Part shown: one piece after another, positions 1 to 40,673 of the stretch
How the letters are laid out: every line of letters begins with the position of its first letter
Position numbering within the stretch: position 1 is the stretch's first letter
Translations under genes and position numbers: made by a program
Notes under the pieces: model-generated
What the model was told of the DNA's origin: nothing
What the model saw: only the letters and a program-made list of their open reading frames with translations
Databases searched by the model: none
Sequence record: PQ179042
DNA: 40,673 nucleotides
Direction: 5' to 3' (one strand)
DNA from: Escherichia phage KM02

Positions 1-1
1 T

Positions 2-177
2 TCTCACAGTTCAAGAACCTCAAGTCTCCCCATAGGCCCTCTTTCAGTCAGACCAAAGGCCCTACCCCAGTCTATCATAAGGTTGGACCGATGGTCAAGA
101 CTTCAGGTCAACGATAGGTAGAGGCTATGGCTTAGGGAAGGACGATAGGTTGGGACTATGGGTCTTCTTTGAGTCTC
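2..177. repeat. Left direct terminal repeat (176 bp), identical to 40498-40673
   Basis: Exact match of window start (from nt 2) to window end; nt 1 (t) does not match 40497 (a). T7 has a comparable 160-bp terminal redundancy. Confidence 0.95.
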
Positions 178-197
178 TATCTGTATAGTGTTATAGT
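169..197 (+). promoter_or_regulatory. Candidate host sigma70 early promoter (TTGAGT-17-TATAGT)
   Basis: -35-like ttgagt at 169-174, 17-nt spacer, -10 tatagt at 192-197; straddles the terminal repeat boundary. Confidence 0.4.
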
Positions 198-214
198 ATA
201 ACATTACGTCCTAC

Positions 215-298
215 ACCTACAGTCTCACTAACCTACAGTCTCACTAACCTACAGTCTCAACCATAAGACACCAACACCTACAGTCATAGACCTACAGT
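215..298. repeat. Array of five ACCTACAGT-core short repeats (two full 16-bp units ACCTACAGTCTCACTA) beginning 38 bp inside the left terminal repeat boundary
   Basis: Copies at 215, 231, 247, 276 and 290, read directly. Confidence 0.8.
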
Positions 299-334
299 TA
301 ATAGACACAAGGCTATAGACTTAAGGTCTAAGAC

Positions 335-550
335 ATGTTAGTCAAAGACTATATCCTCTTACACCATGGGGCCGACGATAGCTTAATCAATATTATTTCG
401 AATTACCTATTGACTATAGGTCCAGACTATGGCTTAATAGCTTCCGTCAACACGACACGGCAACAACCGGATAGTGAAGACGCCTGGTCATCCCGGTTAA
501 GTAGACAGCCTGATAAGTCATACGAACAACAGGCAGATGACAGAAAGTAG
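335..550 (+). CDS. Hypothetical early protein (weakly supported)
   Basis: 71-aa ORF in the track; only a weak aagg Shine-Dalgarno; lies upstream of the best host promoter candidate. Confidence 0.25.
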   Translation: MLVKDYILLHHGADDSLINIISNYLLTIGPDYGLIASVNTTRQQPDSEDAWSSRLSRQPDKSYEQQADDRK

Positions 551-580
551 TTGACAAGATGTACCGACTTAAAGTAGTAT
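551..580 (+). promoter_or_regulatory. Candidate host sigma70 early promoter (TTGACA-18-TAGTAT)
   Basis: Perfect -35 TTGACA at 551-556 and -10-like TAGTAT at 575-580, upstream of the early gene cluster, as for the T7 A promoters. Confidence 0.5.
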
Positions 581-708
581 GTACCACATCAACACGAAAC
601 AACGGTGACGACCAACACTAAAACGGTCTACCTGAAGTCCTCTGACTGAAGGGAATGTTCTTTAACAATCTGGATAAACTCTTAATGTGCGCCGATAGCG
701 ACTAACTA

Positions 709-740
709 CAGGGCCTTTGAGTCTACATCTGAAGGCCCTG
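709..740 (+). promoter_or_regulatory. Leader hairpin (9-bp stem cagggcctt/aaggccctg), candidate RNase III processing site
   Basis: Perfect inverted repeat 709-717 / 732-740, followed by a conserved block gactgatagtcactaact-aaagga that recurs at 1058-1080. Confidence 0.45.
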
Positions 741-763
741 ACTGATAGTCACTAACTTAAAGG

Positions 764-1018
764 ATGGACACTATGAAACACTTAAGCACAATCACTAATC
801 ACAATGAAGTATTCGTGAATACTAAAGGTTATGCGTGGATTCAACTTAAAGAGATGACAGGAGCGCGTCACCGTGTGGTAGTGCGCAAGGTCTCAAGCAA
901 GCCGTTCAGCAACTACAGCGTAGATACTGTGCGTATAGACAACGAGACCTACCTGATAGACTCGCAGATAACCGTGAGTCCTACAGCGGGCGTCTCAGCT
1001 CCTTATTTCGCTAACTGA
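764..1018 (+). CDS. Hypothetical early protein (gene 0.3 position; not Ocr-like in composition)
   Basis: ORF in track; SD aagga at 759-763 favours the internal ATG at 773 as the true start; not acidic like T7 Ocr. Confidence 0.5.
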   Translation: MDTMKHLSTITNHNEVFVNTKGYAWIQLKEMTGARHRVVVRKVSSKPFSNYSVDTVRIDNETYLIDSQITVSPTAGVSAPYFAN

Positions 1019-1032
1019 GAGTGATTAACTAC

Positions 1033-1057
1033 AGGTCGTTAGACTTATAGCGGCCTG
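1033..1057 (+). promoter_or_regulatory. Second leader hairpin (7-bp stem with one G-U pair), candidate RNase III site
   Basis: caggtcg 1033-1039 pairs with cggcctg 1051-1057; followed by the same conserved block plus SD as at 741-775. Confidence 0.4.
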
Positions 1058-1088
1058 ACTGATAGTCACTAACTAAAGGATAGACAAT

Positions 1089-1277
1089 ATGGCAGACCGT
1101 AAGCTGACCAAAGCAGAAGTGATAGCCGAATGTCGTGAAACTTTCCGCGAGTTCCCTGAGACTTTCAGAGGTGACGACATAGCAAAACAGCAGTATTGGA
1201 ATGATTACACAGACAGTCTCTGTAAGTCTGGCATGATTTACAACCACCAGTATAACACCTGGTCAAACCCATTCTAA
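1089..1277 (+). CDS. Hypothetical early protein
   Basis: 62-aa ORF with SD aagga 8 nt upstream inside the repeated leader block. Confidence 0.5.
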   Translation: MADRKLTKAEVIAECRETFREFPETFRGDDIAKQQYWNDYTDSLCKSGMIYNHQYNTWSNPF

Positions 1278-1293
1278 CGTAAGGAATATAACC

Positions 1294-1806
1294 ATGAAAC
1301 TGATAGGCAAAGGCGCGTTCACTAAGTGCTACCTGAAGGATTGCGGAAAGCGTGTACTTCTGGTCTCTTCAGACCCAATCAAGGAGTGCATGGCGTGGGG
1401 CTGGTTCCCTGAGTCGCCGCTGTTCCCTGAAGTCAAGATGATTGAGGTAGGCACGTATGAGATGGACTACATGCCACCAACACGAGGACTCAAGGCGCAT
1501 TTAGGTGACGACCAGTGGCAACTCTATCAGGTGCTGCGAGATTGCTTCTCACGGTCTCCGGTATTCTCTCAACCTGCTGACCTGTATCACAAGTGGTACG
1601 AGATATTCCAAGCTGCACACGACAGGTCTGAGACCGAGACTGTGCGGGAAGGTCTGATGGATGTACTGATGGCGCTGGACGCTTGCGCTAACTTTGGGTC
1701 TGACATTCAGTTTGAGATAAGCCCACGCAATGTACGGGCCGTTCACGGCAAGTTGATACTGGTGGACTGCTTCTTCCTTGTGTCCAAGCTGCAAGAGGTG
1801 AGGTAA
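1294..1806 (+). CDS. 0.7: Short Ser/Thr protein kinase, T7 gp0.7-like kinase domain only
   Basis: N-terminal KLIGKGAFTKCY resembles the glycine-rich loop KMLGNGHFSAAY recalled from T7 gp0.7; SD aagga present; 170 aa versus 359 aa in T7. Confidence 0.55.
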   Translation: MKLIGKGAFTKCYLKDCGKRVLLVSSDPIKECMAWGWFPESPLFPEVKMIEVGTYEMDYMPPTRGLKAHLGDDQWQLYQVLRDCFSRSPVFSQPADLYHKWYEIFQAAHDRSETETVREGLMDVLMALDACANFGSDIQFEISPRNVRAVHGKLILVDCFFLVSKLQEVR

Positions 1807-1811
1807 TCAAG

Positions 1812-1961
1812 ATGGTAACTTATGGTCTCTGCCAGCACCACGTCACCAACGCCCGGCTTATGGTCAAGACCGGGCAGTTAAACCACGATGCGACTATGCG
1901 CTATCTGAAAGCGGTCTACGAGGGCCGCAAGCGTATACACGACAGTTTACACGCTGAGTGA
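1812..1961 (+). CDS. Small hypothetical protein (49 aa)
   Basis: ATG at 1812 preceded by gaggtgagg; not in the ORF track because it is under 60 aa. Confidence 0.25.
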   Translation: MVTYGLCQHHVTNARLMVKTGQLNHDATMRYLKAVYEGRKRIHDSLHAE

Positions 1962-2028
1962 CAGACGATAGGTCATCTAACTGATAGGTGGCCTCAAAGA
2001 TTATCACTTAAATTGATAGGGGTTAACT

Positions 2029-2193
2029 ATGAAACTTACAGGCATCACACTTTACGTAACCATCATTCTGTCTTGGCTGACTGCGGTCATAGCTGATGGG
2101 AATGCACTACGCCTTGGTTGGCTGGCAGTTGATATCATATTCTCTCCGGTAGGGGTTGTGCGTGGCATCCTGATGTGGATTGGACTGGCGTGA
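2029..2193 (+). CDS. Small hydrophobic (membrane) protein, 54 aa
   Basis: ORF MKLTGITLYVTIILSWLTAVIADGNALRLGWLAVDIIFSPVGVVRGILMWIGLA read from sequence; weak SD. Confidence 0.3.
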   Translation: MKLTGITLYVTIILSWLTAVIADGNALRLGWLAVDIIFSPVGVVRGILMWIGLA

Positions 2194-2199
2194 TAAACT

Positions 2200-2400
2200 A
2201 TGAGTCTTGCACTATTGATAGCCATAGGCTATGGACTTATCGCCTACGTGCTGGTGAGAGACATCAACAAAGCGCGTAAAGTCTATAAATTCAACTATGT
2301 ACGTATGGTCCGCTGGACTGTACGTCAACCTAACGGACGATTCATGTGCAACCTCGCGAACGTCTGGGATATAGCAACTCTTGGGAGCAAACTACAATGA
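2200..2400 (+). CDS. Hypothetical protein (weak)
   Basis: 66-aa ORF in track; no clear SD; overlaps the next ORF. Confidence 0.2.
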   Translation: MSLALLIAIGYGLIAYVLVRDINKARKVYKFNYVRMVRWTVRQPNGRFMCNLANVWDIATLGSKLQ

Positions 2401-2723
2401 ACAAGTCATACGGGATTAATCTGGTACACTCTATGGACGCAGACATGCAAATGTTAAGCCTACTGGCTACCGGGTATCGTCACGGAACGTCAAGTCACAC
2501 CTCACGTCAACAGCAGGAGCGGGACCGTGTACTACAGGCACGACTCCGGGCAGAGGGCCATAAGTCCGAGCTGATGTGTCTGGCGTATGGTGGACGACCA
2601 ATCACCGACGATGGTAAACTTCTGGTCTCAGGCTGGAAGGCGATAGACCAACGGTCAACCATCAAGCACACGACTCACGGTGACTTCTGTCATCTTCATG
2701 CTAACCCTCTGATATGCAAGTAA
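2346..2723 (+). CDS. Hypothetical early protein (probable start at ATG 2397)
   Basis: 125-aa ORF; ggag lies 9 nt before the internal ATG at 2397. Confidence 0.35.
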   Translation: MQPRERLGYSNSWEQTTMNKSYGINLVHSMDADMQMLSLLATGYRHGTSSHTSRQQQERDRVLQARLRAEGHKSELMCLAYGGRPITDDGKLLVSGWKAIDQRSTIKHTTHGDFCHLHANPLICK

Positions 2724-2728
2724 TTATG

Positions 2729-2751
2729 ACTTAACTATCACTATAGGACTC
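2729..2751 (+). promoter_or_regulatory. Phage-RNAP promoter directly upstream of the RNAP gene
   Basis: cttaactatcactatagg at 2730-2747 matches the consensus of the ten other phage promoters in this genome. Confidence 0.6.
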
Positions 2752-2820
2752 AAGGTCTAAGACTCCAAGTGAAAGACCAAAGAGACTTTAAGTGAAAGAC
2801 TAATAACAAGGACTTTAAGT

Positions 2821-5502
2821 ATGAGCGTCATCTCTATTGAAAAACACGACTTCTCTGATGTGTCGAACGCCATTGAGCCGTTTAACCTGCTGGCTGACCA
2901 CTACGGGCAAGACCTTGCAGTCAAACAGCTTCAGCTTGAGCACGAGGCATACACTGAAGGCGAGCGACGTTTCATCAAGAACCTTGAGCGCCAGACTGAG
3001 CGCGGGGAACTGGCAGACAATCAGGTCGCCAAGCCTTTGATGCAGACTCTGGTCCCTAATATTGCGCAAGCCGTCAGGGAGTGGCATGAAGGGCCAGACG
3101 GGAAGCTGTCAACCTCTCGTCCTAGCGTAGCGTTCACCGTGTTGAGCACTGAAGAGAAGGCCGTCAAGGACCGCTCTATGCGCATCTCCTGTGAGTCTGC
3201 TGCGGTTATCATACTGAAGGTCATACTCTCCAAGCTGGTCAAGCCTGAAGGGATACCGATTACACCGATGGCCTCAGCGATAGGTCGCACACTTGAGGAC
3301 GAAATCCGCTTCGGTCGCATCCGTGACAAGGAGAAAGAGCACTTCAAGAAGGCGATAGCTGATAACCTGAATAAGCGGGCCGGGGCGTCCTACAAGAAAG
3401 CCTACATGCAAGCGGTCGAGGCATCCATGCTGGAGCAAGGCCAACTGGAAGATGCGTGGGGGACTTGGAGTCCGACCGAGGCTGTCCACGTTGGAATCAA
3501 GATGCTGGAGATTGTCATCCAGTCCACACAACTGGTCGAGCTTAAGCGTTACGGTGCTGGCAATGCAGCGGCTGACGTTGAGATGGTCCACCTGTCAGAC
3601 TTCTGGGTCAAGAAGATGGCACAACGAGGATTCAGCCTTGCGGGTATAGCTCCAGTCTACCAGCCTTGCGTCGTTCCACCTAAGCCGTGGACTGGTGTCG
3701 TAGGTGGTGGGTACTGGGCCAAAGGACGCAGACCATTACCACTGATTCGCTTAGGGTCTAAGTCTGCGGTAGCACGCTACGAAGACGTGTATATGCCTGA
3801 AGTCTATGACGCTGTGAACATCATTCAGAATACACCTTGGAAAGTGAACAAGAAGGTTCTGGAAGTGGTGAACATGGTCGAGAAGCTGAACAACACGCCT
3901 ATTGATGACATACCTCAGATGGAACCGCTGAAGCCTGAGGACTATGCGGGTGAGACTGAAGATGAACTCAAGGCATGGAAGAAGGCTGCTGCTGGTATCT
4001 ACCGCCGAGAGAAGGCACGGCAGTCACGCAGATTGTCACTGAGCTTTATCGTTAACCAAGCGAACAAGTTCTCTCAGTTCAAGGTCATATGGTTTCCGTA
4101 CAACATGGACTGGCGCGGTCGCGTCTACGCTGTGCCGATGTTCAACCCTCAAGGCAACGACATGCAGAAAGGTCTCCTTACTCTGGCAGTCGGCAAGCCT
4201 ATTGGCGCTGATGGTTTCAAGTGGCTGAAGGTCCATGGTGCAAACTGTGCGGGTGTCGATAAAGTCACCTTCGAGGAGCGCATCAAGTGGGTGGAAGACA
4301 ACCACGACAACATCATGGCTGCTGCTAAAGCACCGATGGACAGCATTGAGTGGTGGGGCAAGTTAGACTCTCCGTTCTGTTTCCTCGCGTTCTGCTTCGA
4401 GTATGCTGGCGTAATGCACCACGGCCTGTCTTACTCCTGCTCGCTGCCGATAGCGTTCGATGGGTCCTGCTCTGGTATTCAGCACTTCAGTGCGATGCTT
4501 CGTGACCACATCGGTGGACATGCAGTAAACCTGACGCCATCCGGTAAGGTACAAGACATCTACCGCATTGTGTCTGACCGCATTGAGGAGGAGCTTAAAG
4601 TCCTGCTGATTAACGGTACTGACAACGAGATGGGCACTCACGAGGATAAGAAAACTGGTGAGATTACCGAACGTATCAAGCTGGGGACACGAGAGCTGGC
4701 CCGTCAGTGGCTGACATACGGTATGTCACGCAAGGTCACTAAGCGTTCAGTCATGACTCTGGCCTACGGGTCGAAAGAGTATGGCTTCGCAGACCAAGTT
4801 TACGAGGACATCGTGATGCCAGCGATTGACTCAGGGTCTGGCGCTATGTTCACCGAGCCAAGCCAAGCGGCTCGCTTCATGGCTAATATGATTTGGGAAG
4901 CTGTGAGTGTGACCGTAGTTGCTGCGGTAGACGCTATGAAGTGGCTTCAGGGTGCCGCCAAGCTGCTGGCTGCTGAAGTGAAGGACAAGAAGACTGGAGA
5001 AATCCTGAAGCCTTGCCTTCCGGTACACTGGGTAACACCTGATGGTTTCCCGGTCTGGCAGGAATATCGCAAGAAGGATACCACTCGTCTGAACTTGATG
5101 TTCTTAGGGTCATTCAACCTTCAGCCTACCGTCAACAGGGGTACGAAGAAAGAGCTGGACAAGCACAAGCAGGAGTCAGGCATTAGCCCGAACTTCGTCC
5201 ACTCACAAGATGGTAGCCACCTACGCAAGACTGTAGTCCATACTCACCGCAAGTATGGCGTGATGTCGTTCGCAGTGATTCACGATAGCTTCGGGACCAT
5301 CCCGGCTGACGCTGAGTATCTGTTCCGTGGGGTCCGTGAGACTATGGTCGAGACCTACCTAGACAACGATGTGCTGCTTGACTTCTACGAGCAGTTTGAA
5401 TACCAGCTTCACGAGAGCCAGCGCGATAAGTTGCCAGAGCTTCCGAAGAAAGGTAAACTGAATATCGAAGACATCTTGTCTTCAGACTTTGCATTCGCTT
5501 AA
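2821..5502 (+). CDS. 1: DNA-directed RNA polymerase, single-subunit T7-type
   Basis: 893 aa; extensive identity to recalled T7 RNAP motifs (FSDV...PFN.LADHYG, WFPYNMDWRGRVYAV, HGANCAGVDK, ending DFAFA). Confidence 0.98.
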   Translation: MSVISIEKHDFSDVSNAIEPFNLLADHYGQDLAVKQLQLEHEAYTEGERRFIKNLERQTERGELADNQVAKPLMQTLVPNIAQAVREWHEGPDGKLSTSRPSVAFTVLSTEEKAVKDRSMRISCESAAVIILKVILSKLVKPEGIPITPMASAIGRTLEDEIRFGRIRDKEKEHFKKAIADNLNKRAGASYKKAYMQAVEASMLEQGQLEDAWGTWSPTEAVHVGIKMLEIVIQSTQLVELKRYGAGNAAADVEMVHLSDFWVKKMAQRGFSLAGIAPVYQPCVVPPKPWTGVVGGGYWAKGRRPLPLIRLGSKSAVARYEDVYMPEVYDAVNIIQNTPWKVNKKVLEVVNMVEKLNNTPIDDIPQMEPLKPEDYAGETEDELKAWKKAAAGIYRREKARQSRRLSLSFIVNQANKFSQFKVIWFPYNMDWRGRVYAVPMFNPQGNDMQKGLLTLAVGKPIGADGFKWLKVHGANCAGVDKVTFEERIKWVEDNHDNIMAAAKAPMDSIEWWGKLDSPFCFLAFCFEYAGVMHHGLSYSCSLPIAFDGSCSGIQHFSAMLRDHIGGHAVNLTPSGKVQDIYRIVSDRIEEELKVLLINGTDNEMGTHEDKKTGEITERIKLGTRELARQWLTYGMSRKVTKRSVMTLAYGSKEYGFADQVYEDIVMPAIDSGSGAMFTEPSQAARFMANMIWEAVSVTVVAAVDAMKWLQGAAKLLAAEVKDKKTGEILKPCLPVHWVTPDGFPVWQEYRKKDTTRLNLMFLGSFNLQPTVNRGTKKELDKHKQESGISPNFVHSQDGSHLRKTVVHTHRKYGVMSFAVIHDSFGTIPADAEYLFRGVRETMVETYLDNDVLLDFYEQFEYQLHESQRDKLPELPKKGKLNIEDILSSDFAFA

Positions 5503-40497: not shown

Positions 40498-40673
40498 TCT
40501 CACAGTTCAAGAACCTCAAGTCTCCCCATAGGCCCTCTTTCAGTCAGACCAAAGGCCCTACCCCAGTCTATCATAAGGTTGGACCGATGGTCAAGACTTC
40601 AGGTCAACGATAGGTAGAGGCTATGGCTTAGGGAAGGACGATAGGTTGGGACTATGGGTCTTCTTTGAGTCTC
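40498..40673. repeat. Right direct terminal repeat (176 bp), identical to 2-177
   Basis: Exact sequence identity with the left end, read directly. Confidence 0.95.

Follow-up and report, generated by a model that had tools for sequence, protein, structure and literature searches.

Does the left end of the genome of Escherichia phage KM02 (sequence record PQ179042) carry a shortened form of the T7 early protein gp0.7, or an intact gene of another family? An earlier note on this DNA had described a kinase ORF of 170 aa, compared with 359 aa in T7, that retains an N-terminal kinase-like motif, and a separate 49-aa ORF that follows it in another frame; from this it had proposed a truncated gp0.7-type kinase whose shutoff domain had been lost, split or replaced. 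We have followed up this proposal across the whole stretch of DNA, referred to here as the window (40,673 nucleotides), using as a reference the 359-aa T7 gp0.7 (T7K; PHROG 2828, PF27024) taken from NC_001604. The basic description is accurate: ORF 1294-1806 encodes 170 aa, an ATG ORF of 49 aa lies at 1812..1961 on the plus strand, and the residues I4-G-K-G-A-F-T10 of the larger product resemble L73-G-N-G-H-F-S79 of T7 gp0.7. What has to be decided is whether these features are those of a gp0.7 remnant.

The early region of the window

Positions 2-177 of the window are identical to 40498-40673, and the exact 176-bp direct repeats thus formed at both termini indicate that the window is a complete linear genome of the T7 type with a terminal repeat. 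Its first 6 kb have 92-95% nucleotide identity to K1F-like phages (genus Kayfunavirus, Autographiviridae). Gene 1, which codes for the RNA polymerase (893 aa), is found at 2821-5502, and the region to its left is the early region, which in T7 biology is transcribed by the host RNA polymerase. Since the 170-aa gene lies upstream of gene 1, it would by analogy with T7 be transcribed early by the host enzyme. The features of this region to which the text first refers are as follows.

551..580, plus strand: sigma-70-like promoter, a candidate early promoter for the left-end genes (TTGACA-18-TAGTAT, 10/12, by consensus match alone)
1089..1277, plus strand: 62-aa ORF, an upstream cassette partner in some phages (match to phrog_336)
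1281..1285, plus strand: Shine-Dalgarno-like AAGGA, 8 nt before the ATG of the 170-aa ORF, as read from the sequence
1294..1806, plus strand: complete 170-aa ATG ORF for a predicted stand-alone, minimal protein-kinase-like protein (match to phrog_11084)
1812..1961, plus strand: gene 0.35 homologue of 49 aa (80% identical to K1F gp0.35; phrog_5058)

Just inside the left terminal repeat, the window has three tandem 16-nt units at 215-262 (ACCTACAGTCTCACTA), and related repeats containing CCTACAG are found near the same terminal repeat at 210-299; both the units and the related repeats are similar to the short repeat arrays beside the T7 terminal repeats.

The 170-aa gene is an intact member of PHROG 11084

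The 170-aa product matches phrog_11084 with an E-value of 2.3e-92, its residues 1-170 aligning with positions 2-166 of the 170 in the profile, while the 49-aa product matches phrog_5058 over 49/49 positions (E 2e-27). Both are real conserved genes and not chance ORFs, and the larger of the two is an intact member of a catalogued, uncharacterised phage family.

A length of 170 aa is the norm for this family and not a truncated length. All of the phage records with a tblastn match (83/83) span at least 80% of the 170-aa query, and the 90%-identity clusters of the family (n=115) are mostly 156-188 aa long. An exhaustive profile search returned 800 representatives (50% identity) at E<=1e-3, 499 of which reach E<=1e-10, and nearly all of the 150 of these 800 representatives that were listed have lengths of 155-210 aa; in the few longer members (201-297 aa) no recognisable extra domain was found. 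The sole real shortening in the window amounts to 4 residues. The nearest relatives have 174 aa and end in ...EVRSSRW, and the window has TAA (1804-1806) in place of a Ser codon; the residues missing as compared with these nearest kin lie outside the conserved core.

General domain collections said little about the family. Pfam gave no match for the window protein and none that recurred among 50 family members, the sole hint being the match of one distant member to YrbL-PhoP_reg, a family of the kinase clan (0.028). Searches of NCBIfam and PADLOC with the 170-aa protein returned no meaningful match, and a profile search of PDB sequences with the family returned chance matches alone.

A predicted minimal kinase fold with unusual catalytic residues

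A structural model of the 170-aa protein was generated using AlphaFold2 from a 50-sequence alignment (pLDDT 96.4, pTM 0.90). The model has a bilobal kinase fold, in which a five-stranded, beta-rich N-lobe with the glycine loop and alphaC is joined to a small helical C-lobe that bears the catalytic loop and the Mg-binding loop. Its elements follow one another in the order seen in kinases (b1, glycine loop, b2, b3, short helix, b4, b5, helices, and then a loop, a b-hairpin, an Asp and a short C-terminal helix). The model has no activation segment and no alphaF-alphaI substrate-binding lobe, as the chain ends soon after the DFG-like motif, and the protein has neither the 68-residue N-terminal extension nor the DNA-binding shutoff domain of T7 gp0.7. 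Given this model, we regard it as very probable that the protein adopts a kinase-like fold.

Conservation was computed over 209 non-redundant members of PHROG 11084, and the family motifs, GxGxF[TS], E141-x4-N146 and D158-[CV]-F, were found to run in kinase order. In the window they are encoded as follows.

1303..1323, plus strand: codons for the glycine-rich loop I4-G5-K6-G7-A8-F9-T10 (G7 100%, G5 97%, F9 97%, T/S10 100%)
1381..1386, plus strand: codons for K30-E31, a dyad on the short helix that follows beta3, at the alphaC position (K30 99%, E31 92%; helix 28-34 in the model)
1711..1731, plus strand: codons for the catalytic-loop-like F140-E141-I-S-P-R-N146 (E141 and N146 100%; F, S, P and R 96-98%)
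1765..1773, plus strand: codons for the DFG-like D158-C-F160 (D158 100%, F160 97%)

The spacing of E141-x4-N146 is that of the kinase catalytic loop D-x4-N, with D158-C-F at the place of DFG, and, as in kinases, the catalytic-loop-like motif of the model is preceded by the long helix 115-131 and followed by the beta hairpin 147-156. Outside these motifs, Y78 and L81 are 99% conserved and P45 and L154 96-98% conserved across the 209 members. The position of the catalytic Asp is held by the invariant Glu E141, and the beta3 strand, V21-L-L-V-S, is without a conserved lysine, position 24 being Lys in 35% of the 209 members. Instead, K30 and E31 on the alphaC-like helix may act as the phosphate-binding Lys and the alphaC Glu.

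When the model was compared with solved structures in the PDB using Foldseek, the matches were to APH(2''), CK2, corramycin phosphotransferase, Rio2 and CDK2, the best of them at an E-value of 3.5e-4. Aminoglycoside and antibiotic phosphotransferases, choline kinases and Rio kinases, all atypical enzymes of the kinase fold, have 230-350 residues and extra substrate-binding subdomains, match at E-values of only 3.5e-4 to 5e-2, and retain the beta3 Lys and the catalytic Asp, which the 170-aa family does not. For HopBF1 and other minimal bacterial effector kinases, the likeness is one of fold, with 6% identity and no more than 96 residues aligned; HopBF1 itself is no phage protein but belongs to the type III effectors of plant and animal pathogens. 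Among viral predicted structures (BFVD), the top match was the family's own representative, from Cellulophaga phage phi19:3 (E 7e-19), and the next were phage proteins at E-values of 4e-7 to 1e-4 with a probability of 1.0, two of them named protein kinase; the BFVD matches also include choline/ethanolamine kinases. One of these phage proteins, A0A7L7SMK1, is listed as a T7K homologue in the 2026 T7K paper (PMC13645617).

A possible remote relationship to the T7 kinase domain

The family and the T7K kinase domain may be ancient sisters or paralogues that have diverged past the reach of routine sequence detection, a view compatible with the explanation that we favour below. We consider this possible, at somewhat under even chances, and then as a very remote sisterhood and not as membership. 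In a first hhalign comparison, using less diverse profiles, the two gave a probability of 3% and an E-value of 0.013, and yet the alignment was collinear. With diverse profiles, built from 209 family members and 19 T7K kinase domains (including those of Luksen, DU_PP_II, CR8, and Brevundimonas and Pseudomonas phages), the probability rose to 50% and the E-value was 1.6e-4 over 132 columns, with residues 2-158 of the window protein placed on T7K 71-213. All motifs are in register in this alignment: the glycine loop falls on T7K L73-S79 and F140-N146 on F194-D195-M-H-S-G-N200, giving the residue pairs G7/G76, E141/D195, N146/N200 and D158/D213. In T7K, a G76F mutant is catalytically dead, and D213 is part of the DPV motif that is a hallmark of the T7K family (PMC13645617).

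The hhalign score of 32.5 is above that of every control (9.9 for the reversed profile and <=27.1 for 30 block shuffles). It comes, however, mostly from the glycine loop, and shuffles in which the glycine-loop block was kept whole already reached 26-27. In Foldseek, phage kinases, the published T7K homologue among them, beat every solved cellular kinase, and both kinase units stop about 12-30 residues past the Mg-binding Asp, without an activation segment or alphaF-alphaI; that of T7K has been defined as residues 1-242 (PMC13645617). Set against this are the low probability obtained with the less diverse profiles, the fact that the same motifs are common to all kinase-fold proteins, and differences in the catalytic residues. 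K93 (V-I-K93-V) is invariant in the 19 diverse T7K kinase domains and has no counterpart in the 170-aa family, and where T7K has D195-x-H-x-x-N200 and D213-P-V, the family has E141-I-S-P-R-N146 and D158-C/V-F, so that the spacing is the same but the residues differ (Glu for Asp, DCF for DPV). The AlphaFold2 model of T7K itself (26 sequences) has a pLDDT of 64, with the kinase core below 50, and is too poor for a reciprocal structural comparison.

Catalysis and substrate

A kinase fold might also serve something other than protein phosphorylation, and the protein could be a small-molecule kinase, carry out other nucleotide chemistry, or be a non-catalytic pseudokinase. Aminoglycoside, choline and antibiotic phosphotransferases are examples of the first, and SelO-type pseudokinases, which carry out AMPylation by means of a flipped nucleotide, illustrate the second. 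The best PDB matches in Foldseek, APH(2'') and corramycin phosphotransferase, together with the choline/ethanolamine kinases in BFVD, point in this direction, as do the missing canonical beta3 Lys, the Glu in place of the catalytic Asp and the lack of a peptide-binding lobe in the model. Nevertheless, the large helical substrate-binding subdomain of small-molecule kinases is absent here, and in a very diverged family the residues E141, N146, D158 and K30, along with the glycine loop, reach 97-100% conservation, which argues for catalysis and against a dead scaffold. T7K, too, is without a substrate lobe, and yet is a hyperactive protein kinase (PMC13645617). Overall, we judge these alternatives to protein phosphorylation to be rather unlikely. 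The odds lean slightly towards an active phosphotransferase. Should it be active, a 170-residue kinase fold that lacks the beta3 lysine and uses Glu as its base would rank among the smallest and oddest kinases.

The 170-aa gene and T7 gp0.7 are different genes

The proposal with which we began, that truncation removed the shutoff domain from a gp0.7 orthologue, with 1812-1961 perhaps a split-off or replaced remnant, fares far worse. The two proteins do have features in common. Both belong to the early proteins of T7-like phages and have a GxGxF[ST] loop, a minimal core, an acidic-x4-Asn motif and a Mg-binding Asp near the end of the kinase unit, and the 170 residues show the weak collinear alignment with T7K 71-213 described above. 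Moreover, gp0.7 genes without a shutoff domain exist, as in Citrobacter phage CR8. At the level of sequence, however, the 170-aa protein has no detectable similarity to T7 gp0.7. BLASTP of the 170-aa ORF against T7 gp0.7 found none (best E 1.4), and that of the 49-aa ORF gave no match. In tblastn against the whole window, the full gp0.7, its first 70 residues and its last 117 residues found nothing at E<0.7 and nothing in 1807-2028. HMMs of the three gp0.7 parts (N-terminal, kinase and shutoff), built from 127 homologues and run unfiltered on 1112 six-frame segments of the window, gave a best E-value of 1.2, with the 170-aa ORF at an E-value of 25 under the kinase-domain HMM. The shutoff domain (T7K 243-359) found nothing at E<0.7 in any of the six frames of the window by tblastn or unfiltered HMM, and the segment 1812-1961, compared with the gp0.7 C-terminus in any frame, gave no alignment by BLASTP, tblastn or HMM. 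By comparison, the CR8 protein, a true gp0.7 without the shutoff domain, has 242 aa and still matches T7 gp0.7 at an E-value of 3e-29.

The two families are also separate in the PHROG scan, in which T7 gp0.7 and gp06 of Dickeya phage Luksen match 2828, 15752 and 18305, while the window protein and its Luksen homologue match only 11084, with no cross-hits even at E<=10. Luksen gp02 (177 aa) is a member of PHROG 11084 that is 54% identical to the window protein, and Luksen gp06 (352 aa; phrog_2828, E 3e-62) is a genuine gp0.7 homologue directly upstream of the RNA polymerase gene. Because Luksen carries both genes, as Aarhusvirus phages do, the 170-aa family is independent of gp0.7. The positions differ as well. 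In T7, Luksen, DU_PP_II and an Aeromonas phage, gene 1 comes immediately after the kinase gene, whereas in the window four small ORFs (1812-2723) stand between gene 1 and the 170-aa gene, which occupies the slot of ocr.

With a length of about 170 aa being the norm over hundreds of clusters, the T7K hallmarks missing (the beta3 K93, D-x-H, DPV and the 68-residue N-terminal extension) and the 49-aa ORF being gp0.35, the truncation reading is for practical purposes refuted, and the 170-aa gene is almost certainly not a truncated gp0.7. Of the label “gp0.7-type kinase” given in the earlier note, “kinase-like” is borne out by the model fold, the order of motifs and the weak collinear profile alignment; the derivation from gp0.7 falls, given the lack of similarity and the separate family. 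The suggestion that the shutoff domain had been lost, split or replaced has to be abandoned too, as no frame has similarity to the gp0.7 C-terminus. This corrects an attractive but wrong annotation, in that the phage has no gp0.7 remnant and the gene is intact and belongs to another family.

The neighbouring small ORFs

The 49-aa ORF starts with ATG and has its own Shine-Dalgarno sequence, being preceded by GAGGTGAGG, and in K1F gene 0.35 follows gene 0.3 (ocr). The 49-aa ORF is an independent conserved small gene and not a fragment of gp0.7. The C-terminal part of Luksen gp04 (74 aa; 1787-2011), encoded two genes downstream of the kinase-like gene in that phage, resembles the gp0.35 of the window (37% identity, E 1e-5).

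On the other side, the 62-aa ORF has a counterpart in Klebsiella phage FBKp16, directly before the kinase-like gene there, with 74% identity; the kinase-like genes of the window and FBKp16 are themselves less conserved (59%). It is absent upstream of the kinase-like gene in ZG49, YZ1, U8 and others, and distant phages have no 62-aa ORF before their kinase-like homologue; its absence in several phages means that it is not an obligatory partner.

The gene lies in an exchangeable cassette in the ocr slot

In a blastn comparison of window 1-3000 with K1F, 2-1073 matches K1F 1-1085 (93%) and 1811-2401 matches K1F 1622-2212 (90%), with nothing aligning in between. The ocr gene of K1F lies at K1F 1114-1623. 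Vec13 gives the same pattern as K1F, while SD6 is collinear with the window throughout. From the gap in homology to K1F and Vec13, it follows that window 1074-1810 takes the place of ocr, and a search for ocr across the whole window found none. The cassette and its left border are as follows.

1054..1077, plus strand: 24-nt intergenic element, copy 2, bordering the cassette on its left (repeat search; 96% identical to the first copy at 737-760)
1074..1810, plus strand: 737-bp cassette, made up of the 62-aa ORF and the kinase-like ORF, in place of the ocr of K1F and Vec13 (blastn)

The homology to K1F stops at 1073, within the 24-nt element, and the element may serve as a site of RNase III-type processing, as a recombination hot spot, or as both. 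One copy of the element (CCTGACTGATAGTCACTAACTxAAA) stands before the gp0.2 gene and the other before the 62-aa ORF; a GC-rich, hairpin-like stretch precedes the element, and the pair 694-720 and 1017-1043 belongs to the same feature.

The 170-aa gene and ocr (gene 0.3 of T7 and K1F) occupy exactly the same Kayfunavirus slot, between the intergenic element on the gp0.2 side and gene 0.35, and their products are nearly equal in length (170 aa compared with 169 aa in K1F). In spite of this they share no sequence similarity, and Ocr is a DNA mimic, not an enzyme fold. The near-identical length made K1F gp0.3 a candidate homologue, but with 63% identity to T7 Ocr it is a genuine Ocr with no relationship to the window protein, and the candidate was dismissed. 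Within the phage collection, we found the cassette sequence in 40 records, from phages with hosts in Escherichia, Salmonella, Enterobacter, Citrobacter, Cronobacter and Pectobacterium (26 with both ORFs, about 11 with only the 170-aa gene and 3 with only the 62-aa part), and a K1F-type ocr is present in 177. Among the records listed, no accession is common to the two sets, 117 of the 177 ocr records standing outside that list. In Kayfunaviruses, the 170-aa gene is an exchangeable cassette in the slot of the anti-restriction gene ocr, and K1F-like phages split at this one hot spot into lineages of the ocr type and of the kinase-like type. Therapeutic use of K1F-like phages is directed at K1 E. 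coli, Salmonella Typhi and Enterobacter, and the kinase-like gene is a concrete and easily tested candidate for a determinant of host range or counter-defence.

Several records show further variation at the slot. Salmonella phage ST16 (OQ860982, 1478-1824) is a natural deletion variant in which window 1333-1953 is deleted, homology running to 1332 and again from 1954, so that only the first 13 codons of the kinase-like gene are left and gp0.35 is also lost; ST10 and ST56 have the same hit pattern. Escherichia phage ZG49 (NC_047777, 1310-2359) has the kinase-like gene without the gp0.2 and 62-aa ORFs. In ZG49, what follows the full kinase-like gene is the beginning of a gp0.35 (partial; 1828-1911), then residues 72-170 of the kinase-like gene product once more (1908-2204), and then a full gp0.35; this repeat of about 390 bp reflects either a partial tandem duplication or an error of assembly. 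In GenBank, ocr has been annotated as “protein kinase” in the Kayfunaviruses Vec13 (MH400309, 1610-1942), LM33_P1 (LT594300), ZH4 (OM355495) and IME177 (MZ398247), genes that RefSeq re-annotates as ocr-like; a propagated “protein kinase” label on ocr, in the same slot as the kinase-like gene, could mislead comparisons.

Proposed role in host takeover or counter-defence

The best explanation, and in our view a probable one, is that the gene encodes a complete, stand-alone, minimal kinase-fold phosphotransferase that is made early for host takeover or counter-defence. We infer early expression, ATP binding, phosphotransfer and a counter-defence role along the following lines. Being upstream of the phage RNA polymerase gene, the 170-aa gene would be expressed early by the host RNA polymerase. 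The protein would bind Mg-ATP in an open active site, with no substrate-selecting lobe and no DNA-targeting domain, and would move phosphate from Mg-ATP to one or more host targets; the modified host component or components would then aid takeover or counter a defence system. A stripped kinase of this kind has a precedent in T7K, which can be a hyperactive, promiscuous protein kinase with an anti-defence function, and whose DNA-binding domain, without an equivalent in the 170-aa protein, focuses it on nucleic-acid-binding targets (PMC13645617).

The takeover or counter-defence role itself is put forward tentatively. Exchange with ocr at the same slot makes counter-defence the most attractive guess, and it is by position only that a functional analogy to Ocr is suggested. 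A more specific version, which we offer as speculation and think improbable as it stands, is that PHROG 11084 represents an unrecognised class of minimal phage kinases (Glu base, no beta3 lysine, alphaC Lys-Glu) that in Kayfunaviruses would be a functional alternative to Ocr, disarming restriction-modification, BREX-type or other DNA-targeting defences enzymatically, through phosphorylation or some other modification that depends on a nucleotide, and not by DNA mimicry.

Distribution of the family

PHROG 11084 is found in Autographiviridae (Kayfunavirus, Aarhusvirus, Molineuxvirinae), in Seuratvirus siphoviruses, in Otagovirus myoviruses of Pseudomonas syringae, in a Ralstonia phage and in Cellulophaga phages, and in the loci examined its gene always has small early or accessory genes around it. 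When one genome for each of 185,579 prokaryotic species was scanned by pattern, only two loci were found, one in a MAG and one in a SAG, whereas the same kind of scan of the viral collection found 38. The present analysis thereby assigns a predicted fold and candidate catalytic residues to a large, phage-restricted family of “hypothetical proteins” spread over podo-, sipho- and myoviruses of Enterobacteria, Pseudomonas, Dickeya, Ralstonia and Cellulophaga.

For the analysis of neighbours, ORFs were clustered around 46 loci (30 non-redundant groups). Across the 30 non-redundant loci no conserved partner was found beyond the RNA polymerase (in Autographiviridae) and the 62-aa ORF (in 3 groups), and the lack of a conserved neighbour family suggests that the protein acts as a stand-alone module.

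A literature search for PHROG 11084 found no functional study, the sole mention being that of the SH4/SH5 homologue (ORF2, 175 aa), which is listed without a function and with Seurat gp66 as its best hit (PMC4925675). In the same two phages, the gene in the position of the 62-aa ORF (ORF1, 68 aa) has a Synechococcus phage ORF as its best hit (PMC4925675). The Dickeya homologues of the 170-aa protein are labelled “serine/threonine kinase” in some databases.
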